Shown here one piece after another: positions 15,564 to 54,211 of a stretch of DNA of 64,000 bases. Source of the stretch: Acidobacteriota bacterium (GTDB lineage Bacteria; Acidobacteriota; Thermoanaerobaculia; Multivoradales; Multivoraceae); NCBI GenBank assembly GCA_029263415.1, contig JAJCXN010000048.1:75169-139168 (forward strand). Reading direction: 5' to 3'. Positions within the stretch are counted from its first letter, which is position 1; the number at the start of each line of letters is the position of its first letter. The position numbers and the translations under genes were made by a program. The notes beneath the pieces were generated by a model. The model was not told the origin of the DNA, searched no databases, and saw only the letters and a program-made list of their open reading frames with translations.

Positions 15564-16073
15564 ATGCGACGGATCGAATTCAAGGCTCCTCACTTTCAGC
15601 AAGGATCCCAACAACGATGCCTCGCGCTGCTCACTCTCATGATCGCGATCGCAGCCGGTGGGTGCGAGCGGGACGACCAGCTCGACCCAGCCCAGGAAGC
15701 CGAACGGGCCGCGATGTTCTATGTGGCGCTGATGGAGCACACGGAAGAACTGCTGGAGCACAACGCGGCCGACCTGCCTGAACAGATTGAGGCCGCGCGT
15801 CAGCGATCTCAGGAGCTGCTAGAGCAGGTTTCAGTTGCTTGCAAGAACCTCACAAACGAGCAGTACGGCCAGTACAGCGGGCGCCAATTCCAGCTCGAAG
15901 GCACGGTGAAATATCAAAACGCGGAGCTCGTGCAAGACCGACTGATGGCCATCTCCGGTGCCAGGCCTGAGCTCGGTCCAGTGGCGCAGCGTTTTCGCAG
16001 CATCCGCGCCTACGGAGACGTCGTCGAACTCCGGAGTCAGTTTCCCGAAGACGCCGCCCGTTTGGGCCTCTGA
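15564..16073 (+). CDS. lipoprotein, hypothetical
   Basis: Internal start MRRIEFKAPHF… with GGAG 7 nt upstream. Signal plus lipobox LLTLMIAIAAGGC. The upstream 103 codons of track ORF 15255..16073 have no signal and low complexity. Confidence 0.55.
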   Translation: MRRIEFKAPHFQQGSQQRCLALLTLMIAIAAGGCERDDQLDPAQEAERAAMFYVALMEHTEELLEHNAADLPEQIEAARQRSQELLEQVSVACKNLTNEQYGQYSGRQFQLEGTVKYQNAELVQDRLMAISGARPELGPVAQRFRSIRAYGDVVELRSQFPEDAARLGL

Positions 16074-16121
16074 TCGCATTGTTATCGCTATCCGAACAAC
16101 ACACACCTTGGAGGCCACCAA

Positions 16122-16451
16122 ATGAATAGACGTCAGCGAAATCCGTATGCACAGCACCGTTCGGCCGCGAAAATGTTGATGACGGCCAGCTGCATTAGCC
16201 TGGCCCTCTTGGGCGCATGCTCTTCGTCCCTGCCCTCCGACCCAACGGAAGCCGGCAAGCAAATCGCCGAACAACGTTGCGACTGCACCAAAGCCGAAGC
16301 GCCCTACGTCGCGAGTTGCGTCAACACAGCCTCGAGAACTCTGCAAACCGGCACCGAAAAGTACGACGCGAAGGGCCGCATAGCAATGGTCAAATCATAC
16401 GAATCAGAGTTCGAGCGGTGTCCATGGGACAAGCCCGAGTTCTATGAATAG
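16122..16451 (+). CDS. small Cys-containing lipoprotein, hypothetical
   Basis: GGAGG 7 nt upstream of ATG. Lipobox ISLALLGACSS. 5 Cys in the mature part. Confidence 0.55.
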   Translation: MNRRQRNPYAQHRSAAKMLMTASCISLALLGACSSSLPSDPTEAGKQIAEQRCDCTKAEAPYVASCVNTASRTLQTGTEKYDAKGRIAMVKSYESEFERCPWDKPEFYE

Positions 16452-16806
16452 GAAACTCGAGTTGCGAACTACCAGAGACTTCTTCGTGCCGTTACAGCCG
16501 ATCCAGTCGAGCAAGCCGAGCAAGCCGAGCAAGCTTGTCGAGAGCCTCAACGCTACGGGACGGCTTTGATCCGGACAGCTTTGATCCGGACTGCGCTTAC
16601 CGTAGCCGCCGTCCCATCGACCAACCTCGAACAACTCTCACTCCGAAGAGGAAAGCCAATGCGCTCCACACTCGTCGCTGCGGTTCGCTCTTTTCCTCAT
16701 CGCATTGCTGCAAACTTGCCTGCCAGCTACTGCAGTTGTCAGAACATCACTCTTCCGATTGACACATTTATCGGTACAGCCCTTGCCCGTCTGGCGGTGG
16801 CACAGA

Positions 16807-18033
16807 CTAGCCAGTAGGCTCGCCGTTTGGAGGTGAAGATGTGGTTTTTCCAGTCGGACCGCGCAGCCGCCGCTCAGACATTCTTTGAAAGTGTCTCCCG
16901 GCGTTGGGTTCCAGGGCGAGGCCCTGGTTGCCCCGCAGAGCAACTGGGGGTGATTCTGCAACCGGCAGTGTCCGCTCGAAGCGCTGGCCCATCGGCAGAT
17001 CGCACATTTCGTCATCGCAGGATTGCCAACGGATCTCACCAGAAATCGTCACCCCAGCGGTGTCAATCCGGGCTGCATTGTTGATCGTCAATGGCAGGCG
17101 CAGCTCGAACGAACCGTGATGAACTTGGAAGGACTCTCCGGTACCGGCAAGCGTATGAAGCTCGCTCGGCGGTCGCACCAGCGGGCGCTCTACGACGCTC
17201 TCATTCTCAGCGAGCACCACGTCCACCGCGATGGTCCCTTGTGGTGCAGGTTGCGCGTAAACGTGCCGGCCTGCAGGAACGCGGAATTGCACAACAAGAT
17301 CCCTCTGCACCGTAGCGGCGAGTGAGTCGCCGTCGAGGACGATGCTCACCTCTACCGCTTCGGGTGCTGCTGCGTCGACTCTTGCTTCAAGCATGGGCTC
17401 ACCTAGGACTGCACGTAGTAACTGCTCGGGACCCGGGCGGACGGCAAGGTTGTTTTCGAAGAACTTGTGGGTGATCGCGCCGTCCGCGCCAACCACGTAG
17501 CTGCCGGGGTAGGGAATGCCAAACCAGGGATGATCGTCCGGATCGATCAGCGTGTTTAGGATGCCGAACGATCGGATGACCGCTGAGTCTGGATCCGAGA
17601 GCAAGGGATAGCTGATGCCGTGCGCTTCGCCGAAGTCACTCAGCGCATCCGCCTCGTCATAGCTCAGCGCGTACAGCGCGACGCCCGCGGCATCGAAGTC
17701 CTTCAGCCCTTTTTGCAGCTCGACCAGCAGCGAACGGCAAGGAGGTCACCAGACCGCGGAACGGTAGAAGACAAACACCGCTGGTCTTCCTGCGCGATCG
17801 GCATGCAGATCGAAGGGCCTCGCGTCCGACGTGCTGCACTGCACGTCTGGCATGGGTTCGCCAACCTCGGGCCCAGTAGGGAAGGAACCCCGGGGATCGC
17901 TTCTCGGTCCGTTGCCAGGCTGAAAGGGCCCGATGAAGCCGTCGTGGTCCTGCCAGCCTCTGTCGGTCTGAATCGCGCGTGTCTCAAGCTCCAACTTCAC
18001 TACGTGTACTACCTCTCGTAATGGCGTGGTCAT
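16807..18033 (-). CDS. candidate selenoprotein: AhpC/TSA (Bcp/redoxin)-fold thiol peroxidase or oxidoreductase with a U-x-x-C motif, fused to a DsbD-alpha-like C-terminal domain; in-frame TGA at 17746..17748
   Basis: Track ORFs 17746..18033 and 16807..17604 share one frame (17746-16807=939). Exactly 47 sense codons and a single TGA lie between them. Read-through gives …DARPFDLHADRAGRPAVFVFYRSAVW-[TGA]-PPCRSLLVELQKGLKDFDAAGVALYALSYDEADALSDFGEAHGISYPLLSDPDSAVIRSFGIL…. The TGA replaces the first Cys of the W-C-x-x-C motif. The C-terminal 200 aa (…PAGRHVYAQP… CDDEMCDLP) resemble the DsbD N-terminal alpha domain. N-terminal start is uncertain (18033 ATG, or 17853 ATG at MPDVQCS). Confidence 0.6.
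17715..17731 (-). promoter_or_regulatory. bacterial SECIS-like hairpin 15 nt downstream of the in-frame UGA (mRNA 5'-GCUGCU-GGUCG-AGCUGC-3')
   Basis: Minus-strand RNA: a 6-position stem (G-C, C-G, U·U mismatch, G-C, C-G, U-A) closes a GGUCG loop. The loop GGUC falls at +24..+27 from the U of UGA; in E. coli fdhF, G23/U24 lie in GGUC at +22..+25. The U·U mismatch parallels the bulged U17 of fdhF. Confidence 0.4.
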
Positions 18034-18393
18034 CCGGCTGGCAAAGTGTAGCCGAAGGTCCTCGGCCTAAGACAGATTTCGTGTTTGGGTAGGACGGTCT
18101 GCCGAGACGAGCTACCCAACCACACTTCCACCTCTCTACTCCGACCTCCGCTCTTCTACTCTCTTTGTACTTCCCTACTCTTTCTGGACGCTTCCCAGTT
18201 CTTGGTCTGGTTCGATCTTCAGTCCGCGGCCCTTTGGTTACTGCTGCTCCGCCGCTCTACCCCTCTGCCGCTCTGCCGGTGCCGATCCGCCCCATTCACA
18301 AGTTGCCTGCCGGTTACCCACTGGTTGCCCACTGATTGCCTGACAAGAGAGCTATCCGTTGCGTCTCCAGGGGGCCTCTACAACCGAGTCTCG

Positions 18394-19548
18394 CTACTCG
18401 GGGATCGGACCTAGTTCTGGCAAGAACGTATGCAGCACCGCGACTTTCAACCGATGCCCACTGACTCGATAGCGATTTAGGAAAACAATCACGGAGATCT
18501 CTCGTTCGGGAAAGCGAGAGAAGCTTGTGACGAAGCCTGCAACCTGACCACTGTGACTCTGCGAGCGCAGCCCTTGGTAGTCGCGGACAACCCACCCAAA
18601 TCCGTAACCAACGGCCTCACCATCCGGCAGCAGCGTCGAAGTCCACATCGCCTTCTTGGATTCGGCACTCAGTAAAACGTCACCGCCCAGTGCGTGATCC
18701 CACTTCGCCAAGTCTCGGGCTGAGGAGAGTAGCCCGCCAGCTCCTAGCGTCGACGAGGTTTCGGTGGGCATCCGGTTGATCAGCTCGCCGGCCTTGTTCA
18801 CCCAATAGCCCGATGCGCGATTAGGGATGATCGCTTCTGGGTCCGCCAAGCGGGTCTGGGTCATTGCAAGGGGCCCAAAGATACGAGACTGCAAAACCTT
18901 CCCGAGGGGACGGCCCTCGATGCGCTCGACAAGCATGCTCAACAAGAAGTAGCCGGTGTTGCTGTAGTACCAACCGGTCCCGGGCGCAAAATCCATCGGC
19001 CGTGAATGCGCTATCCGAATGACTTCTTCGGGTGTCATCCGAAAGCGATAGACGTCATAGCTTCTGATTTCCTCGTAGTCGGGAATGCCTGATGTGTGGG
19101 TCAATAGTTGGCGCACCGTGACGCCAAGCCACTCGCTGGGCAACGTCGGGAGATAGGTGTGGATAGCATCGTCCAGGTTGAGCTGACCGTCCTGAACGAG
19201 CAACATCGCCGCTGCTGAAACAAACTGCTTGCTGACTGAGCCAATCTCAAAAACGGCGTCTTCGGAAACCGGAACCGAAAGTTCAACGTTGGCCATGCCA
19301 TACGTCCTGAGATGCACCATCTCCCCTTTCGACGCAACAGCCACCAAAGCTCCGGGAATGTTGTTCTCCTTGAGATGAGCATAAATGCGGGCGTCTAACT
19401 TCGCGAATGCCTCAGCACTAGGTTGGGCGATCTGTGCAGACAGCGAGAGGCTGCAGAACAAAGTCACACTCGCTAGCAACACGCCGACTCGAACGATCGC
19501 AGAGAAGCCTGATGGGGGCGAGTCAAAGAGTCGTTTACGGGCAGCCAT
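18394..19548 (-). CDS. serine hydrolase of the beta-lactamase / penicillin-binding (class C-like) family, secreted
   Basis: S-x-x-K motif SVSKQF, YSN-like motif YYSNTGY. Signal peptide VGVLLASVTLFCSLSLSA. GGAGA 8 nt upstream of ATG. Confidence 0.85.
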   Translation of the reverse strand: MAARKRLFDSPPSGFSAIVRVGVLLASVTLFCSLSLSAQIAQPSAEAFAKLDARIYAHLKENNIPGALVAVASKGEMVHLRTYGMANVELSVPVSEDAVFEIGSVSKQFVSAAAMLLVQDGQLNLDDAIHTYLPTLPSEWLGVTVRQLLTHTSGIPDYEEIRSYDVYRFRMTPEEVIRIAHSRPMDFAPGTGWYYSNTGYFLLSMLVERIEGRPLGKVLQSRIFGPLAMTQTRLADPEAIIPNRASGYWVNKAGELINRMPTETSSTLGAGGLLSSARDLAKWDHALGGDVLLSAESKKAMWTSTLLPDGEAVGYGFGWVVRDYQGLRSQSHSGQVAGFVTSFSRFPEREISVIVFLNRYRVSGHRLKVAVLHTFLPELGPIPE

Positions 19549-20004
19549 GAGCAGATCTCCAGTTTCGGTTGTTCAAGAGGACTCACTCCTACTTGTGGTC
19601 CACAAAGTCTTGTTCCATACAAACAGAGGCCGTATCCACTTCATCGGCCACTACAGCAAGGACGATTCGCACGGTCGAGAGTTTGCGTACAGAACGCTTG
19701 ACTCTACGCCCGACGACAACTTCGCCCAAGCAACACCCACCTGGTAACCGGGACAAACCCTTGCAGAACGCTCTTCGACCCGCTCTGCGATCCGACACTG
19801 ACCTCGTCAGCACTGAGTCAGCAGCATTACAGCCCGAGCCTTGCCGTCGCCAAGGCCAGCGGGCTCTGAGTGCACCCCACGCTCATTCTTGAAGCCCCCG
19901 TGGCCTTGGTAGTGTGTCAGCGGTTCTTCGCCCATTACCCCTAAACGGGCCCTAGCAGAACGCCGCAAGGGCGTCAGCAGTCACCCAAATCTCAGGAGAG
20001 GTTG

Positions 20005-27864: not shown

Positions 27865-29961
27865 TCACTCCAGGCCGTGATGCAAAATGACTCGCCGCGC
27901 CTCCTGCTCTCGACCTAGGGCTGCTAGCACTGCCACAAGTGGCCTGGCTCCTTCGTCGGCGTTCGGATCGAGACTGAGGGATTTTTCAAGAGCTTTTGCC
28001 GCGGCAGGATAGTCGCGCGTAGAGATGTGGCAGCGGCCAACTTGAAACCAAGCCCGGGCCAGGAACTCGTTGCTCGAAACAGCACGCTCGAAGTCCTTGC
28101 ATGCTTCGGCCGGTTGCCCCATCCAGCTCCTTAGTCTGCCTCGGTGGTTGTACAACCAAGCGAAGTCCCGAACAGCCACTTGAGACTCTTGCATCTCGAT
28201 AGCCTGGTTGATGACTGCGAGAGCATCGCCGGGGCGATTCTGCCTGGCGGCAACCATCGAGAGCCAGATCCTGGTTTGTTGTGCAGCGTTGAACTCTAGG
28301 GAGCCTAGGTCGGCGAGTAGGGTTTCTAGCAGCTCTTTGGTTTTCTCCAGATCGCCCCGCAGCAAATGAGCTTGGGCAAGCCGTAGTCTTGGTTCGCTGA
28401 GATCTGCGTTGGAGAACAGCTCGCTCGCGTCACTCAGCATTCGAGGCAGCTCTTTAGCGGGGTCCAAAAAGCCCATGCGGATGCTTCCAGAGGCTAGGGC
28501 TAGGCTGTCCGAGATAGCTTGTTGCGGACCAGCGGATGCAGTCAGCGGAGTTACGCTGACTGGAAACGTCGTGCGATCAGCTTGAGGTGCCAAACGCTCT
28601 TCTTCAGGCAGCGGCCGCGATTGAATCCGATGGTCCGTCATGACCACGTGCACCACATCCTGTGTGCGCCTCTTCGGCATGTGACAACTCACGCAGTCTT
28701 CGCGCTCGAAATGTTGAGCTCGATCCTCGCCTGCCAGGTTCAAGGGAGCTTGCGTCTTGCCGTCTTCGGTGTGGCACGCCAAGCACTGAGAACGAGTACG
28801 ACGGAGCGTCTCTATGCGCGCTGGTTTGTTGTGCGGGTCATGACAAGACGTACACTCCAGATCGCCTGGTTTGCTTTCAACAAAACAGGAGCTTTGCTCC
28901 AGCCGATACCCGTGATGGTTGATCTCGAACCGCTGTTGCTTGCCGTGCGCTTTGCCGTCACGGTCGCGTTCTTGCACCTCGAGTTTTAGCAAGAAGTCCT
29001 GGAGGTTCTGACCAGCTGTGAACTGATAGTCGCCCCGGTCCAGCCTTCGTTGCCCGAACACAGAGACGGATGGTTGGTGATGGCATTGGGCACAAACGTC
29101 TCGCCGCCGTTCCGCAGAGAGGTCCTTCGGATCAACGATGGTGCTGCGGACAGCGTCCCGCAGGCTGCGACGTTGCTCGGAAGTTAGCTTCGGGCCGGTG
29201 GACGAACCCTGCAGTGCCTTGGCTTCGAGCGCCTTGGCAACGTGACTTTGACCAGGACCGTGACAGCGCTGGCAGCCGATACCTTCTGGCATCTTCGCCG
29301 GGAATACTGGTGGCGCAAAGCGTTCATCCTGAAACGATGGATCCGTCGGAACGGCGTTGTGACAGAACATGCAGCCACGCTGAACGACACGCAAACCGGC
29401 CTCGTCGTTGCCACGCTCGCCTCCAGGTTTGGTGCCCCACGACGCCTCCTGGGTGTACCAGGCGAGAGGCAGCTCGAACAGCAATCCCTCGGCGCTTTGC
29501 AAGAAATACACCCGAGAAGCAGAGCCAGATCCCAGCACCCAATCTACGGGGCGCTGCCAGAGATGAATCGGTTCTCCGTCTGGGGCTGTCTGCCACTGAG
29601 AGAAAACGATCTTCTCGCCCTCGAGAGACAGGCGGTAGGTTAGGCGCCCATCTTTGATACCAGAAGAAGAAAAGTCTTCGATCCGCGAGGCGTTCTCTGG
29701 CCGGGCGAATGATCGAGCCATGCCGAGCGTTTGAAAGGACTCAGCGATCGAGGAATGGCATTCGGCACAAACCTCGTCAGCCACGAAACCGTGCCAGTTA
29801 TCTTCGCTCGCCGAGGCCTCGGCAGTGTAGGGGTTCGCGAAAGCCACGCTCCTCACTGGGAGCCGGTCGATGCCGCCGAAATCGCTTAGCTGAAACAGCA
29901 ACAAACACAAGATGGCCAGGCAGCAAGCGACTAGCAGCGGAAGTTTCGATGTCTTGGACAT
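27865..29961 (-). CDS. multihaem cytochrome c (7 CxxCH sites) with C-terminal TPR repeats, secreted
   Basis: Signal or anchor LPLLVACCLAILCLLLF. CxxCH motifs: CAECHS, CMFCHN, CQRCHG, CAQCHH, CTSCHD, CLACHT, CVSCHM. The last 200 aa are TPR-like. Confidence 0.8.
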   Translation of the reverse strand: MSKTSKLPLLVACCLAILCLLLFQLSDFGGIDRLPVRSVAFANPYTAEASASEDNWHGFVADEVCAECHSSIAESFQTLGMARSFARPENASRIEDFSSSGIKDGRLTYRLSLEGEKIVFSQWQTAPDGEPIHLWQRPVDWVLGSGSASRVYFLQSAEGLLFELPLAWYTQEASWGTKPGGERGNDEAGLRVVQRGCMFCHNAVPTDPSFQDERFAPPVFPAKMPEGIGCQRCHGPGQSHVAKALEAKALQGSSTGPKLTSEQRRSLRDAVRSTIVDPKDLSAERRRDVCAQCHHQPSVSVFGQRRLDRGDYQFTAGQNLQDFLLKLEVQERDRDGKAHGKQQRFEINHHGYRLEQSSCFVESKPGDLECTSCHDPHNKPARIETLRRTRSQCLACHTEDGKTQAPLNLAGEDRAQHFEREDCVSCHMPKRRTQDVVHVVMTDHRIQSRPLPEEERLAPQADRTTFPVSVTPLTASAGPQQAISDSLALASGSIRMGFLDPAKELPRMLSDASELFSNADLSEPRLRLAQAHLLRGDLEKTKELLETLLADLGSLEFNAAQQTRIWLSMVAARQNRPGDALAVINQAIEMQESQVAVRDFAWLYNHRGRLRSWMGQPAEACKDFERAVSSNEFLARAWFQVGRCHISTRDYPAAAKALEKSLSLDPNADEGARPLVAVLAALGREQEARRVILHHGLE

Positions 29962-42661: not shown

Positions 42662-45424
42662 TCACTCGGCCCGCAAGTTCTCTGCCGGGTCGGTGAGTGC
42701 GGCTCGACGTGCGGGTAAGAGAGTCGCCGTCATGGACGCGAGCGCAAGCGCCCCTACGCCGATGGCCAAGGCCTCAGGACTCATGGACTCGACTCCAAAC
42801 AGGTAGGCGCTGAGTAGACGAGTGGTGACCCAGGAGCCAAGGAGTCCTAGAACCAGTCCGGCGCCGGTCAGAAGGGCGCCGCGTGACGCCACCAATGTCA
42901 TGACGCCACGAGTGTGTGCGCCGAGAGCGATACGGATGCCGATCTCCTTGCGACGTCGACTGACGAGGTGGGACAGAGTGCCGTACAGGCCGAGCACGGC
43001 GAGGATGGTTGCGACCAAGGAGAAGGACACGAGTAGGGTCGTTCGAAACAGCGGTTCTGCGCGAGTCCGCTGAATGCGTGAATTGAGTGGTGCTAGATCG
43101 GCGGCCGGAGCGATGGGGCTGATGGTGGCCGCTGCCTCACGCACTGCATCGGTTGTGGCCGTTGAGAGCGAGAGGCCTTGGGTCGCCATGCCCATGCCCG
43201 CCCCGTCTTCGTCGCGCCGGAAGGTGATCCAAGCGCGCGGCCAATCTTCCTGAGTGTACGGACGGTAGATCGCCGGCTGGTAGCCGTCTTCTACGCGGTT
43301 GTGCACCACATTACCGAGCACACCGACAATCTCGACAGTGTCGAGTCGGTCATCGTCTCGGCTTAGCCGCAAGCGTTCGCCAACAACGTCGATGTTGCCG
43401 AAATGCTGGGTTGCAAACGTCTCGTTGACCAGCGCGACCTGGGCCGAGCCGGAGCTGTCTGCAGCGCTGAGTCCACGACCTCTGAGTAGTGGAATGCGCG
43501 CTACTTCTGGAAAGTTGGGCGTGATTACGTAGCCGGCAGTGCCTGTTGTCATTTCTTCGAATGACTGCCCCTCGAGCAGAATGGCCGGTGCCCAGTTGGG
43601 ATCCTGAAACGGGAGGTTGGAGCTGGCGGCGACCTGTGTGACTCCAGCCGCTGGGACTGACCCGACCGCCTCGAGCATGGCGTCCCAGCGTCGCCACAGA
43701 TTGCCGACGTCTTGTGGTCCACTCTTGAGAGGCGCTGAAAAGGTCCAGAGCCCTTTCGGTTCGAAGCCAGGGTCGAAGCTGGCGACGTTGAGGAACGACA
43801 CCATCAGGAGGCTGGCACCAACGAGCAACATCACTGCGATCGCGAGCTGGCAGACAACAAGTCCGCTGCGCAGCTGCGACGGGGCCGCCACAGCTTGTGC
43901 CCGGCTCCGCAGCCCTTCGAGGGAGAGGCCCGTTCCGAGTCCCCATGAAGCGAGCACTCCTACCAATAGACCAAGAAGGCTCGACATCAGCAGCGCGAGA
44001 CTCACCACCCGAACATCGAGGGCAACCTCGGCAAGACGCGGCATGCTTTGCGGGCTCAGCCGAACGAAGGCACCGACGCCTAGCCGAGCGAGGCCAACGC
44101 CGATCAGGCCGCCGCATAGGGCTAGGGTCACAGACTCTGTGATCAACAGTAGGCTGAGCCGAGCCCGACCCGCGCCAAGGGCTTGCCGAACCTCGAACTC
44201 CCGGCGACGAGCGAGAGCTCGCACCAACATCAGGTTGGTTGAGTTGAGTAGAGCGACTAGCATCAGCAATCCGGCGGCACCGAAGAACAGGCCGAGCAGA
44301 CGCGCTGCTCCGCCGATGGTTTGGGCTTTCAGGCCGTTGACGCCGACGCCGAAGGCTCGGCCATCGTGGATAACGTTTCCGTCGGGAAACTCTTCTGCGA
44401 GTTCTACGGCGAGTACGTCCATCTCTTCGCGCGCGGTCTCGAGAGTGGCGTGGGGCGCTAGGCGCCCGAGTACGAAGAGCGAACGCATGCCTCGGTTGAG
44501 GTAACGAGGGCTGCCCTCTTTGAGCGGCCACCAGATGTCTGGAGTTTCGTTGCGGATGGCCTCGGGGAGCTTGAAGTCAGGCGCCAACACACCGACGACC
44601 ACTTCCGCCGCCCCGGCCTGACCGGGCTCACCGAGGATCGATGAGTCAGCGCCGTAGCGGTCCCGCCAAATTGAGTAGCTGAGCAGTCGCACCGGAGGGG
44701 CGTTCGCCTCGAAGTCTTCCGCTAGGAATGAGCGGCCAAGATGCATCTTGACGCTCAAGAGTTCTAAGAACCCAGCCGTCACGCTGGCGGCTGAACCGAT
44801 CTCCAAACCGCGGCCAACGTCGGGCAGGAGGGCGCCGCGAGATTCGAGAGCGGCAAGGTGGTCGAAGGACGTGGCTCTTTCTCGCCAGTCGGCGAAGTTC
44901 CGTACAGAGACCCCTGCCAAGCGTCGTAGCCCGGCGGCATCCTTGCGCCAAGGTTGATCCGGAAAAGTGGTACCCAGAGCCATCAGCCGGTCGGCCGCGG
45001 CATAGGGAAGGGGGCGCAGCAGGACGGTGTCGACGACACTAAAAATGGTGGTGGTTGCTCCGATACCTAGACCGAGGGTGAGCAGAACGGCCGACTTGAA
45101 GCCGCGGCGTCGGAAGAGAATGCGTAGGCCTGAGTGGACGTCTTCGAGTGCGTTGTACATAGCGGATTCCCGTGGTTTGATGGGAGCAGCCGCGCGGCCT
45201 CGCGCTGCTCGTGTGGCCGGCCGCCACCAGTAGATCGTGGTGGAGAGGGTGTCGCGGAGGTGGGCTAATGAGGCTCGCAAGGTAGCGTTGGTGGACCTGT
45301 CGATGCTTTCGTCGAGATCACCTCTTAGGCTCTCAGCGCCTTTGCTCTCGCCCAGAGTCCGAGCTAGCCATTGGCAAAGGCGTAAAATCAGTCGCGCTAG
45401 ATACTGTGTGAACCCAGTGTTCAT
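42662..45424 (-). CDS. ADOP-family duplicated permease (FtsX-like, MacB-type, two permease modules)
   Basis: 920 aa with two FtsX-type 4-TM modules and large periplasmic domains. N-terminal ADOP-type region. The start ATG overlaps the PadR stop (ATGA at 45421-45424). Confidence 0.85.
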   Translation of the reverse strand: MNTGFTQYLARLILRLCQWLARTLGESKGAESLRGDLDESIDRSTNATLRASLAHLRDTLSTTIYWWRPATRAARGRAAAPIKPRESAMYNALEDVHSGLRILFRRRGFKSAVLLTLGLGIGATTTIFSVVDTVLLRPLPYAAADRLMALGTTFPDQPWRKDAAGLRRLAGVSVRNFADWRERATSFDHLAALESRGALLPDVGRGLEIGSAASVTAGFLELLSVKMHLGRSFLAEDFEANAPPVRLLSYSIWRDRYGADSSILGEPGQAGAAEVVVGVLAPDFKLPEAIRNETPDIWWPLKEGSPRYLNRGMRSLFVLGRLAPHATLETAREEMDVLAVELAEEFPDGNVIHDGRAFGVGVNGLKAQTIGGAARLLGLFFGAAGLLMLVALLNSTNLMLVRALARRREFEVRQALGAGRARLSLLLITESVTLALCGGLIGVGLARLGVGAFVRLSPQSMPRLAEVALDVRVVSLALLMSSLLGLLVGVLASWGLGTGLSLEGLRSRAQAVAAPSQLRSGLVVCQLAIAVMLLVGASLLMVSFLNVASFDPGFEPKGLWTFSAPLKSGPQDVGNLWRRWDAMLEAVGSVPAAGVTQVAASSNLPFQDPNWAPAILLEGQSFEEMTTGTAGYVITPNFPEVARIPLLRGRGLSAADSSGSAQVALVNETFATQHFGNIDVVGERLRLSRDDDRLDTVEIVGVLGNVVHNRVEDGYQPAIYRPYTQEDWPRAWITFRRDEDGAGMGMATQGLSLSTATTDAVREAAATISPIAPAADLAPLNSRIQRTRAEPLFRTTLLVSFSLVATILAVLGLYGTLSHLVSRRRKEIGIRIALGAHTRGVMTLVASRGALLTGAGLVLGLLGSWVTTRLLSAYLFGVESMSPEALAIGVGALALASMTATLLPARRAALTDPAENLRAE

Positions 45425-47215: not shown

Positions 47216-47406
47216 GGCGCATCGCTTGCCGAGCCGCAAGGTCTAAGCTCGCGGCGCCGAACCCAGCGCGCCGAGACACGGCGCCGCTGCAGAAGCGGGC
47301 CACGCCGAAAGACAGGTAATCTCAAAGCCGGGCTCTTCCGGTTCGGCCGAAAGCGCCCGTGTGTAGCCGAAGCAAACACCAGAATGTCGCGGGGCCGGGT
47401 GAGCTG

Positions 47407-48126
47407 ATGAGCGAACAAGTACAAGCCTCCACCGGGAGACTTCAGCGGGCAGCACGCCGGATCATCTTCAGCTTGCTCGTCGTCTCATCAAGTGGCGCTG
47501 CCCTGGTGTGGTGGTCTTACCCCGATGTCCGTTCCTTAGCCACAGCACAGCCAACATCGACGGCTTTCATCGAGTTCGCGGTGGCGAGAGGCGGAAATGT
47601 TCGCTGGACATGGGTACCGGATGCGCGCATCGCTCCTTCGTTGCGCAAGGCGGTGGTCACCGCCGAAGACCTATCCTTCTTCTCGCACAACGGATTCGAC
47701 CGGCACGAGGTGCAAGCCGCGATCGAAGAAGCCTTGGCTGGTGGACGAGTGCGCGGGGCATCGACGATCACCCAGCAACTCGCCAAGAACCTGTGGCTGA
47801 GTCCGTCGCGCAACCCGATTCGTAAGCTGCGCGAGCTGCTGCTAACGCGATCGTTGGAGAAACACCTGAGCAAGCGCCGGATTCTCGAGCTCTATCTGAA
47901 CGTTGCGGAGTTCGGCCCCGCAACGTTCGGAGCTGAGGCTGCTTCGCAGCGGTACTTCGGCAAATCGGCGAGTGACCTCACACAAGAAGAAGCTGCGCAA
48001 CTTGCTGCGAGTCTTCCCGCGTCGTCCTGGCATCCTGGAGTTACCAGTCAGCGCTACCAGGCGCATCTCGGCCGCCTGCGAACGCGGATGCAGCAGCTCG
48101 ATTGGCTCGACCAGTTGGTTCGGTAG
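47407..48126 (+). CDS. mtgA: monofunctional biosynthetic peptidoglycan transglycosylase (GT51)
   Basis: GT51 signatures: EDLSFFSHNGFD, RGASTITQQLAKN, LELYLNVAEFG. N-terminal anchor IIFSLLVVSSSGAALVWW. Confidence 0.85.
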   Translation: MSEQVQASTGRLQRAARRIIFSLLVVSSSGAALVWWSYPDVRSLATAQPTSTAFIEFAVARGGNVRWTWVPDARIAPSLRKAVVTAEDLSFFSHNGFDRHEVQAAIEEALAGGRVRGASTITQQLAKNLWLSPSRNPIRKLRELLLTRSLEKHLSKRRILELYLNVAEFGPATFGAEAASQRYFGKSASDLTQEEAAQLAASLPASSWHPGVTSQRYQAHLGRLRTRMQQLDWLDQLVR

Positions 48127-48426
48127 ACACGTCTGCTTCGCCCCCGCTTTGGCGCTGCAACACAACCCCCAAGACAACGATGCCCGGCACTTCGGAAAGA
48201 CCCTAGTACCGAGACTCACACGCAGTCTCCAGAGAAAAGCGGGTCGCACGCTTCTGCAAGACCAAGCCGCAACTCTCGGTCGAGGCCCCGCAAACCGGTA
48301 CTCCGACCTCGCGGGCGGGCTCTCTTGGGGAACCCGCATTTCTTCGGAAACTTGCCCCGCGCCCGGGAACATCCGCGCTCTGCTCCGTATTCAGATGAGT
48401 CAGAACCTAGAAACCTCGCGAAAACC

Positions 48427-49020
48427 ATGTCGATCACCTCACACCCCTCTATCTCTCGGCTCCTCAGCGCATGGGGTGCTAGTCACCCCTCTGCTCTCAA
48501 CCAACTGCTCGGTCGAGTCCAGAGCCATCTACGCAAACAGGCAAGGGTCCTTCTCGCACGCGAACGCCAGGGCCATACCCTGCAGCCCACCGCGCTCGTC
48601 AATGAAGCGTTCCTACGCCTGTTTCGACAGCGCAATGTTAGGTGGAACGACCGTGAACATTTCTTCGCCGTTGTCGCCATGACCATGCGGCGTGTATTGG
48701 TCGATGCGGCCCGTCGACGGACGGCAGTCCGAAGGGGAGCAAGACCGCTCAAGATCTCGCTCAGCGACGTCGAGCCCGCACACGAGACCGATCTCGAAGT
48801 CCTAGACCTGAATCGCGCGCTCGAAGATCTCGCTGAACTGCACGAGCGTCAGGCTCAAATTGTGACCCTCCGCTACTTCGGGGGCTTGGCAGCTCCGGCT
48901 GTGGCTGAAGCTCTCGACATCTCGGTTTCGACGGTGGAATCGGACTGGCGGATGGCTCGTGCGTGGCTACGGCATCGTTTGACCAACCAGTCCGCCGAGA
49001 AACTGGAACCAAGGCCTTGA
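48427..49020 (+). CDS. ECF (group IV) sigma-70 family sigma factor of the Ser/Thr-kinase-associated type
   Basis: N-terminus SRLLSAWGASHPSALNQLL…ERQGHTLQPTALVNEAFLRL is typical of kinase-partnered ECF sigmas. Region 4 HTH …IVTLRYFGGLAAPAVAEALDISVSTVESDW. Confidence 0.8.
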   Translation: MSITSHPSISRLLSAWGASHPSALNQLLGRVQSHLRKQARVLLARERQGHTLQPTALVNEAFLRLFRQRNVRWNDREHFFAVVAMTMRRVLVDAARRRTAVRRGARPLKISLSDVEPAHETDLEVLDLNRALEDLAELHERQAQIVTLRYFGGLAAPAVAEALDISVSTVESDWRMARAWLRHRLTNQSAEKLEPRP

Positions 49021-52695: not shown

Positions 52696-53196
52696 TCAGC
52701 CAGACTTTCTGAGCACCACGTTCGCTTGTGACGCGGCCTCAACGAACTTCATCGGATCCAGATGAAAGTCAGCGTACACGACCACCCCTTCGGGATCGAT
52801 CACGGTGAACCAAGGAGTCCCGGAGGTGCGATAGTCGCCCATCAGTGTTGAATAGGTCTCACCTGCTTGCCGAACATCGTGGCCAAACGGAATTTCGAGA
52901 CCGTACTTGTCCTGGTTCAAACGAAGCTTGTCGACCGTGTTGATCTCGGCACCTTCGAACACTGTTTGCACCGCGGCAAATCCGAATCCCCGATCAGGCA
53001 GTTCTTCTACCAAGCGTTTCAGCGTTGGGAAGCCGCTGGAATGACAACCCGGACACCAGTGTTGAAAGCAGTAGAGGATCTTGAAGCCATCCCCAAGATC
53101 AGCCAACACCAATGGCTCGACCTCGTTGCCAGTTCCGTCAATCCAGTGAGTCACGCGTAGCTCCGGTGCCTCTTTGTGCAGCAAACCCATCTGCAT
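52696..53196 (-). CDS. thioredoxin-fold thiol:disulfide oxidoreductase (TlpA/redoxin-like), third gene of the msrB-msrA operon
   Basis: WCPGC active site in YCFQHWCPGCHSSGF. Start ATG overlaps the msrA stop (TGATG). The track ORF extends to 53307 across the msrA 3' end. Confidence 0.75.
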   Translation of the reverse strand: MQMGLLHKEAPELRVTHWIDGTGNEVEPLVLADLGDGFKILYCFQHWCPGCHSSGFPTLKRLVEELPDRGFGFAAVQTVFEGAEINTVDKLRLNQDKYGLEIPFGHDVRQAGETYSTLMGDYRTSGTPWFTVIDPEGVVVYADFHLDPMKFVEAASQANVVLRKSG

Positions 53197-53768
53197 CAGG
53201 ATCTCCCCTTCGAACCAAAGCCCGTACCTTGTGATCCAGCTGGGCTCTGCAGAGCGCTGCTTGCATCGAGCGTAGGCAGCACCCAATCGGGCCTCGGAAA
53301 GTGACACGTATAGCCATCCGGATACCGCTGCAAGTAGTCCTGGTGTTCAGGCTCGGCTTCCCAGAAATCGCCGACCGGCTCCACCTCAGTGATCACCTCG
53401 CCTGGCCAGAGACCAGAGGCCTCCACCTCGAGAATGGTCCGCTCCGCAATCTCTCGTTGCTCATCGGTGACGGTGTATATCCCCGAACGATACGAAGACC
53501 CTCGATCATTGCCTTGTTGGTCGATCGTCGTCGGATCATGGATTTGAAAGAAGAGTTCCAGGAGATTTCGATAAGAAGTCTCTTCCGAATCGAAGAGGAT
53601 CTCGATCCCTTCGGCGTGAGACCCGTGATCGCGGTAGGTAGCGTTCGGCACGTCGCCACCGGTGTAACCGACTCGGGTCTCAATGACCCCGGGAAGCTCT
53701 CGAATCAGATCCTGCATTCCCCAGAAACATCCGCCCGCCAGAACTGCGCGTTCGGTGGTCATGCTCAA
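53196..53768 (-). CDS. msrA: peptide-methionine (S)-S-oxide reductase MsrA
   Basis: GCFWG active-site motif in [11 protein letters not shown]. Conserved YHQ-like region ([11 protein letters not shown]…HAEGI). Start overlaps the msrB stop (ATGA). Confidence 0.9.
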
Positions 53769-54211
53769 ACCTCCTCCACTTGGTTCAGATACTCGCCGTA
53801 GCCCTCGTCTTGCATGTCCTCGCGGGCGATGAACCGGAGAGAGGCTGAATTGATGCAGTAGCGAAGGCCGCCTTGGTTCGCTGGACCGTCGGTGAAGACG
53901 TGACCAAGATGGCTATCGCCATGCACACTGCGCACTTCAGTGCGGCTCATCCCATAGGACGTGTCTCGCAATTCGTTGACGAAGGCTTCAACAATTGGCT
54001 TGGTAAAACTCGGCCAACCGCAGCCTGAGTCGAACTTGTCGGAGGAGGCGAAGAGGGGTTCGCCAGACACGATATCGACGTAGATACCAGCCTCCCGATT
54101 CTCAAGGTATTCGCCGGACCCAGGAGCCTCTGTTCCACTCTCTTGCGTCACTCGACGCTGCTCGTGGGTCAGCCCTGCGAGCGCTTCCTTCGTTCGGGTG
54201 TATTCCTTCAT
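53765..54211 (-). CDS. msrB: peptide-methionine (R)-S-oxide reductase MsrB
   Basis: SelR signatures GCGWPSF, HLGHVF, RYCINS (catalytic Cys, not Sec). Confidence 0.9.

Follow-up and report, generated by a model that had tools for sequence, protein, structure and literature searches.

The question raised by one locus in the 64,000-nucleotide stretch of contig JAJCXN010000048.1 from an Acidobacteriota bacterium (the whole stretch is called the window below) is whether a TGA codon inside a thioredoxin-fold gene is a stop, an error, or a codon for selenocysteine (Sec). Two minus-strand open reading frames (ORFs), 17746..18033 (95 aa) and 16807..17604 (265 aa), lie in the same frame, and the only interruption between them is the TGA at 17746-17748, which is followed by 47 codons without a stop. 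A sequence-only reading of the window had described this arrangement, whose coordinates we confirmed, and had favored Sec over a chance pseudogene. That preference was borne out: TGA was found at the same codon in all 51 orthologous loci, Cys occupies the position in distant relatives, and a hairpin just downstream is conserved, so that the Sec reading of the codon is strongly supported by comparative evidence. We consider it very likely that the locus is a single minus-strand gene (16807..18000) for a soluble two-domain peroxiredoxin-like (Prx-like) selenoprotein of about 397 aa, in which UGA would be read as Sec by means of the hairpin within the coding sequence and the two domains would form the redox relay proposed below. 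Sec insertion in this particular organism is what we infer from these comparisons. The elements of the locus, including a hairpin of the bacterial Sec insertion sequence (SECIS) type, are as follows.

16807..18000, minus strand: complete candidate selenoprotein gene, 397 codons plus a TAG stop, in one frame with one internal TGA
18000..17998, minus strand: probable start codon GTG, supported by the N-terminal match to homologues, with a GAGAGG motif 11 nt upstream
18033, minus strand: alternative start codon ATG, which would add 11 non-conserved residues
17467..17865, minus strand: AhpC/TSA domain (PF00578; Prx-like, thioredoxin fold) with UxxC; Pfam E=1.1e-24, 87.2 bits against a cut-off of 26
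17746..17748, minus strand: UGA, the putative Sec codon, residue 85 from the GTG start and 96 from the ATG; TGA in 51/51 orthologues
17737..17739, minus strand: Cys codon TGC of U-P-P-C, the presumed resolving Cys
17715..17731, minus strand: bacterial SECIS-type hairpin, with 5' arm 17731..17726, loop GGUCG 17725..17721 and 3' arm 17720..17715
17729, minus strand: window-specific A-to-T change, Gln to Leu, which gives the stem a central U·U mismatch
16975..17310, minus strand: DsbD-alpha/ScsB-alpha-like (DsbD_N) domain; Pfam residues 242-353, 31.9 bits against a cut-off of 25
17002..17019, minus strand: Cys pair C-x4-C of the C-terminal domain, TGC codons 17019..17017 and 17004..17002
16807..16809, minus strand: stop codon TAG, the end of the gene

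Reading through the TGA yields ...AVFVFYRSAVW-[UGA]-PPCRSLLVELQKGL..., in which the codon is followed by PPCRSLLVELQ. From the ATG at 18033 the read-through product has 408 aa. The true start is probably the GTG at 18000 and the ATG is less likely, because the N-termini of homologues (MQPELETR...) align with MKLELETR... read from the GTG. The coding frame is continuous, with no further stop or frameshift across the 397 codons, and a separately built Logan contig (run SRR15505518) is identical to the window over 15715..19604, TGA included. By itself, a TGA between two open stretches carries no significance: at the 60% GC of this window, roughly two hundred in-frame TGAs are flanked on either side by 40 or more open codons. 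What lifts the locus beyond chance is that a protein domain spans the TGA, that the TGA falls in a redox motif and that it recurs at the same codon in every orthologue. A scan of the window for further in-frame TGA selenoprotein candidates gave noise only, apart from the codon at 17748, and a promoter and terminator consensus scan of 16500-18450 gave no match.

An AhpC/TSA-type redoxin fold carrying W-U-P-P-C had been recognized from the letters alone, and the Pfam results agree with it. With Cys substituted for the stop, the AhpC/TSA match covers aa 57-189 of the 408-aa read-through and thus spans the TGA, and the Redoxin model also matches the substituted product (E=1.1e-15). The C-terminal DsbD_N-like domain, which like the probable GTG start and the hairpin mismatch of the window had escaped the sequence-only reading, carries its own Cys pair in the motif W-Q-x-C-D-D-x-x-C-D-x-P. 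These residues (C339 and C344 in ATG numbering) are invariant in alignment A1, which includes the window itself, and the equivalent positions are at least 90% conserved in alignment A3, in which Cys-form relatives are included. The protein ends about 45 residues past the alpha-like domain and shows no further Pfam domain. Among NCBIfam models none reached its cut-off, the best being 'SelL-related redox protein' (NF040769) with 36.9 bits against 120, and a sequence search of the PDB with the C-terminal domain gave no match. Inspection of the sequence revealed no signal peptide and, at the N-terminus or internally, no hydrophobic segment, so that a cytoplasmic location is probable.

Orthologues were collected in two ways. 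A search of 5.8 billion proteins returned 525 relatives, and the best 120 of them (62-100% identity) were all gene calls of about 284 aa that covered just 64-70% of the query. In the 16 relatives aligned from these 120, every call started at a Met 14 codons after the TGA. Shortened calls of this kind are expected of gene callers that stop at a Sec codon, and no full-length annotation was found among the close homologues retrieved from the protein database; the few with names were called 'hypothetical', 'AhpC' or 'DsbD family'. In the second search, 53 loci whose tblastn matches cross the TGA (query residues about 15-389) were obtained from 185,579 species-representative genomes. Two of the 53 were set apart as a decayed copy (L052) and a fragment (L054), and in the remaining 51 orthologous loci the aligned codon was TGA in 51 and a Cys codon in none, which answers whether homologues carry Cys or TGA here. 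The context of the TGA is nearly invariant, FRSAVW-U-PPCR(S/T)QLV(E/Q)LQ. In the DNA set of 52 sequences (the window plus the 51 orthologues), PPC directly follows the TGA in all 52 translations, and in the Cys codon of U-P-P-C the TG (columns 10-11) is invariant and the third base is C in over 90%.

The pattern of variation in these sequences is that of a translated gene. Column entropies at codon positions 1, 2 and 3 were 0.62, 0.48 and 1.47 in the 20 codons before the TGA, and 0.68, 0.57 and 1.48 in codons +13 to +60 after it, in the same frame. Because the third position is far more variable than the first and second, coding-type constraint in one frame is indicated on both flanks of the TGA. 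The 12 codons directly after the TGA are the most conserved part of the gene (0.25 and 0.03 at positions 1 and 2). The window protein keeps every residue that is invariant in alignment A1, for example the Cys pair and the VIRSFG motif.

The carriers of the orthologues belong to about six phyla, including metagenome-assembled genomes (MAGs) of Acidobacteriota, Verrucomicrobiota and Actinomycetota, and their labels include Pseudomonadales/Azotimanducaceae/K189A (Gammaproteobacteria), Alphaproteobacteria, 'Deltaproteobacteria', Thermoanaerobaculia, Limisphaerales and Acidimicrobiales/Poriferisodalis. Sponge or marine sources may be presumed from some of the record or isolate names (e.g., 'Candidatus Poriferisodalis'). 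The window protein is 70-73% identical to those of MAGs that bear the labels Gammaproteobacteria, 'Deltaproteobacteria' and Thermoanaerobaculia, a pattern suggestive of horizontal spread between these bacteria. Across the 52 loci no conserved gene neighborhood was found, the sole widely shared 'neighbor' being a spurious antisense ORF. Two intact TGA-containing paralogues occur on chromosome OY761542.1 (L009 and L011), and likewise in the MAG NP949 (L010 and L028). The decayed paralogue mentioned above, riddled with stops, is the second copy of an Azotimanducaceae MAG. Three further loci (L051, L021 and L050) have extra stops or shorter ORFs downstream of the Sec codon and may be pseudogenes or long-read assembly errors.

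Distant relatives with 29-39% identity were retrieved by a HMMER scan of 1.84 billion cluster representatives. Full-length members of this set carry Cys at the Sec position (WCPYC, WCPFC, WCSFC, WCAFC), and the classical Sec/Cys correspondence therefore holds in the alignments. These Cys forms share the C-terminal domain, some have signal peptides, and some are named 'redoxin domain-containing protein [Dehalococcoidia bacterium]'. Cys forms were not found in the window's subfamily at identities above about 40%. An AlphaFold model of one full-length Cys homologue (P0139, which in alignment A3 has 34% identity to the window ORF), for which an alignment of 49 sequences was used, was confident, with a predicted local distance difference score (pLDDT) of 93.5 and a predicted template modeling score (pTM) of 0.89. 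In this model, C68, which corresponds to the Sec position, is placed between strand 56-61 and helix 69-80, as in a canonical thioredoxin-fold active site. Three distant relatives deserve separate mention. P0184 (SWWPFC) and P0353 (DWWPYC) show Trp at the Sec/Cys position, which could be a real TGG or a TGA rendered as Trp by the gene caller. P0134 (616 aa) is a tandem duplication of the whole Prx-like plus DsbD_N module; its first copy starts just past the Sec position and hence probably represents a Sec form cut short by the gene call, and its second has Ser there (DWSSYC).

A SECIS-like hairpin just downstream of the TGA had also been proposed, and this claim stood for the family and needs qualification for the window. 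The hairpin is present at 17715..17731 and conserved, and the window's own version is weak, for reasons given below. In the 52 sequences it consists of a 6-bp stem (GCAGCU/AGCUGC) and a 5-nt loop (xGUxx), begins 14 nt after the UGA and has its loop GU 22-23 nt after it; in E. coli fdhF the corresponding distance is 20-21 nt. The stem is encoded by the codons for Q-L-V-E-L-Q (Leu for the first Gln in the window). RNAalifold predicted exactly this 6-bp stem unprompted, and 99.3% of the stem cells are paired. At pair 21/31, both sides of which are synonymous sites (CAG/CAA and CUG/UUG), we counted GC in 37 sequences, AU in 10 and GU in 4, with no A·C. The observed covariation score was reached by none of 500 shuffles, and both sequence groups, LVQLQ and LVELQ, contribute to the ten A-U cases. 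In the 12 codons after the TGA, entropy at the third position is as low as 0.94 bits versus about 1.5 elsewhere, and this depressed synonymous variability fits an RNA constraint acting on top of the coding constraint.

On this basis the following mechanism can be proposed. The UGA at 17746-17748 would be decoded as Sec under the direction of a SelB-type hairpin inside the coding sequence. By analogy with the Cys homologue, Sec would be the attacking residue of U-P-P-C at the N-terminus of the first helix of the Prx-like thioredoxin fold. Its selenolate would attack an oxidized substrate, which may be a disulfide, a sulfenic acid or a peroxide, and the Cys three residues later would resolve the intermediate to give a selenenylsulfide. 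The fused DsbD-alpha-like domain would then exchange electrons with the Se-S centre through its C-x4-C pair and link it to an external reductant or partner. Such a relay would be a covalently joined version of the pairing between a DsbD/ScsB alpha domain and its thioredoxin-fold client. Electron transfer from an alpha domain to a Prx-like protein has a precedent, because the alpha-domain Cys pair of DsbD/ScsB passes electrons to thioredoxin-fold clients and in Caulobacter the reduced state of the Prx-like protein PrxL and of the peroxiredoxin PprX depends on ScsB (PMC3322552). Both the substrate and the direction of electron flow are presumptive.

Several observations weigh against the selenoprotein interpretation or against parts of it. 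Independent covariation is seen at one stem pair only, the five others being largely fixed by the conserved peptide. Rfam returned neither SECIS nor any other relevant family, for the whole window at the gathering threshold or for 17640-17800 at E up to 10. The fold of the 91-nt region is no stabler than that of shuffled sequences (z=0.01); it is the short hairpin that matters, not the 91-nt fold. Among the 52 sequences the window is the sole one with a broken 20/32 pair, having CTG (Leu) instead of CAG/CAA (Gln), and its hairpin is calculated at -5.8 kcal/mol versus -11.1 for the family consensus. Because it is about 5 kcal/mol weaker than the consensus, the efficiency of Sec insertion may be lower in the window copy. 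The GGUCG loop is kept in it, as are five of the six pairs of the stem. As had been stated before, no selA, selB, selD or tRNA-Sec lies in the 64-kb window, which we confirmed with a Pfam scan of 40 window ORFs (SelA/SelB/SelD) and a tRNA scan, and none was found in the homologue loci of about 7 kb, the tRNA scan having covered the window and all 53 loci. Finally, the proposed function and the intramolecular relay draw on homology and on the model of a homologue with 34% identity, not on the window protein.

These points bear most directly on the possibility that the family is a true selenoprotein family of which the window holds an impaired or decaying copy, through the U·U mismatch or through loss of the Sec machinery, with translation mostly ending at the UGA. 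The uniquely broken central pair, the reduced folding energy, the lack of Sec machinery in 64 kb and the existence of decayed copies elsewhere, such as L052, are all in keeping with it. On the other hand, the ORF is otherwise intact over its 397 codons with the A1-invariant residues all kept, most of the stem and the loop are retained, and the SECIS of E. coli fdhF tolerates small irregularities (a bulged U), so that we regard an impaired copy as unlikely. A pseudogene or an assembly error, in which TGC at the catalytic Cys codon changed to TGA or a base was miscalled, would need just one base to change, and gene callers do treat the locus as a truncated gene. This explanation is effectively refuted by the comparative data and we give it almost no credence, considering that the TGA recurs with no Cys alternative in orthologues over several phyla, that purifying selection in frame is seen on both sides of it, that the separately built contig is identical, and that the hairpin is conserved.

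Two other readings keep the TGA as a genuine codon and interpret it differently. If UGA were read as another amino acid, by reassignment to Trp or Gly or by near-cognate read-through, the Trp in P0184 and P0353 would have an explanation, and reassignment of UGA to Trp does occur in some bacteria (PMC13462651). In this window, however, TGA is an ordinary stop that ends 25 of the 49 long ORFs at 60% GC, and nothing in the many phyla of the carriers points to an altered code. In homologues, moreover, a redox-active Cys occupies the position, a SECIS-type hairpin with covariation follows it, and Trp in its place would leave a WxxC motif without a redox centre; decoding as another residue is thus very improbable. 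Alternatively, the locus could make two products, with an N-terminal peptide of 84 aa ending at the TGA and a C-terminal protein made independently from an internal start, as the Met that most homologues have 14 codons after the TGA, and that gene callers use, might suggest. Yet the window and at least 8 other loci have Leu, Ile or a different residue in place of that Met, the next start in the window (TTG 17604) is 47 codons downstream, and the 12 codons between the TGA and the Met position are the most conserved stretch, PPCR(S/T)QLV(E/Q)LQ. To judge from the homologue model, the split would also separate strand beta-1 from helix alpha-1 of the thioredoxin fold, and we find separate products scarcely believable. 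Code reassignment and two separate genes were both rejected.

As a family, this selenoprotein is not new. The gene is to be assigned, by sequence comparison, to the already catalogued 'Prx-like (UxxC)' selenoprotein family, which has been on record since 2004-2008: it is the 'Prx-like protein' of the Sargasso Sea study (PMC1088965) and 'Prx-like 1, pfam00578, UxxC', with 225 selenoproteins, in the Global Ocean Sampling (GOS) study (PMC2398784). In Table 1 of a 2026 review it appears as 'Prx-like thiol:disulfide oxidoreductase, PF00578, UxxC/UxxU', a high-confidence family credited to ref. 12 of that review (PMC13188914). The '#Prx-like 1' entry JCVI_READ_1092963245529 of GOS Dataset S1 matches the window protein with 60% identity over 286 aa (E=1e-126), C-terminal domain included, and reads FWUPPCRSQLVELQKF...ISGEVLWQTCDDDVCDLP... 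around and beyond the Sec position. The PF00578 domain, the UxxC motif, the in-frame bacterial SECIS and the marine bacterial carriers are common to both, and nothing essential differs. The DsbD_N-like domain and the conserved N-terminal extension of about 45 residues in the window's subfamily are unmentioned in the three papers (PMC1088965, PMC2398784, PMC13188914); 'DsbD' is absent (0 occurrences) from the main text of the GOS study, which names other fusions. The fusion to a DsbD-alpha-like domain, not discussed in these papers, is modestly new, and so is the finding that the close homologues retrieved are all truncated calls. More tentatively, and with some doubt on our side, the Sec-containing Prx-like/DsbD-alpha fusion might constitute an undescribed subfamily, with Sec in 51/51 loci and horizontal spread over at least six phyla (marine, possibly sponge-associated), that acts as a soluble two-centre Se-S/S-S relay without a membrane DsbD-beta domain.

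Comparison with other redox systems helps to place the protein. With DsbD/ScsB, whose known clients include DsbD-gamma, CcmG and the Caulobacter TlpA-PprX and PrxL (PMC3322552), it shares the alpha (DsbD_N) domain with a redox Cys pair. It differs from them in fusing both modules in one soluble chain without the membrane beta domain or a signal peptide, in using Sec at the thioredoxin-fold centre, and in the C-x4-C spacing of its Cys pair. True peroxiredoxins (Sec form TxxU) have the same Prx fold, but their signature Pxxx(T/S)xxC/U is absent from the window protein, in which FYRSAVWU has Ala at -3 and Phe at -7 and the motif is UxxC rather than TxxU. In contrast to the BCP/PrxQ and AhpE types (M. 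tuberculosis BcpB, 5epf; AhpE, 5id2), the motif is of the TlpA-like W-C-P-P-C-R type. SelL-related proteins (NF040769) and eukaryotic selenoprotein L resemble it in having a Prx-like thioredoxin fold with Sec in an xxC/xxU motif. The motif of SelL is UxxU, SelL has no DsbD_N domain, and the window protein, which scores below the NF040769 cut-off, is not a member. Because the peroxiredoxin signature is absent and the motif is TlpA-like, the window family may be called 'Prx-like' and peroxidase activity is not assured by the name; the Prx-like PrxL had no peroxidase activity (PMC3322552).

Nothing here changes what is known of selenoprotein biology, and the consequences are mainly for annotation. 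With its start 14 codons past the Sec codon, a call is left without the active site and without one third of the thioredoxin fold. The family is not captured by any NCBIfam model, and a dedicated one would repair hundreds of records. The gene also marks its host as a probable Sec user, and the fusion of UxxC with a DsbD-alpha-like domain is a compact, soluble system in which to examine how electrons pass between a selenenylsulfide and a disulfide.

Other genes of the window were noted in passing. A Cys-based redox cluster lies at 52696..54211 on the minus strand and comprises msrB (53765-54211, PF01641), msrA (53196-53768, PF01625) and an AhpC/TSA-like redoxin (52696-53307) with an ordinary HWCPGCH motif; the cluster is without an in-frame TGA. 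At 47359..48682 on the plus strand, a transglycosylase ORF (47359-48126, PF00912) overlaps an ORF in another frame (47903-48682), and a PBP1-type gene with a frameshift or an assembly fault may underlie the pair. A duplicated permease of the ADOP family (TIGR03434, 657.6 bits against a cut-off of 622.3) is encoded at 42662..45424 on the minus strand; this family is typical of Acidobacteriota, which tentatively makes an Acidobacteriota MAG the probable host. A multihaem c-type cytochrome (paired CXXCH, decahaem-like) fused to tetratricopeptide (TPR) repeats is encoded at 27865..29961 on the same strand.

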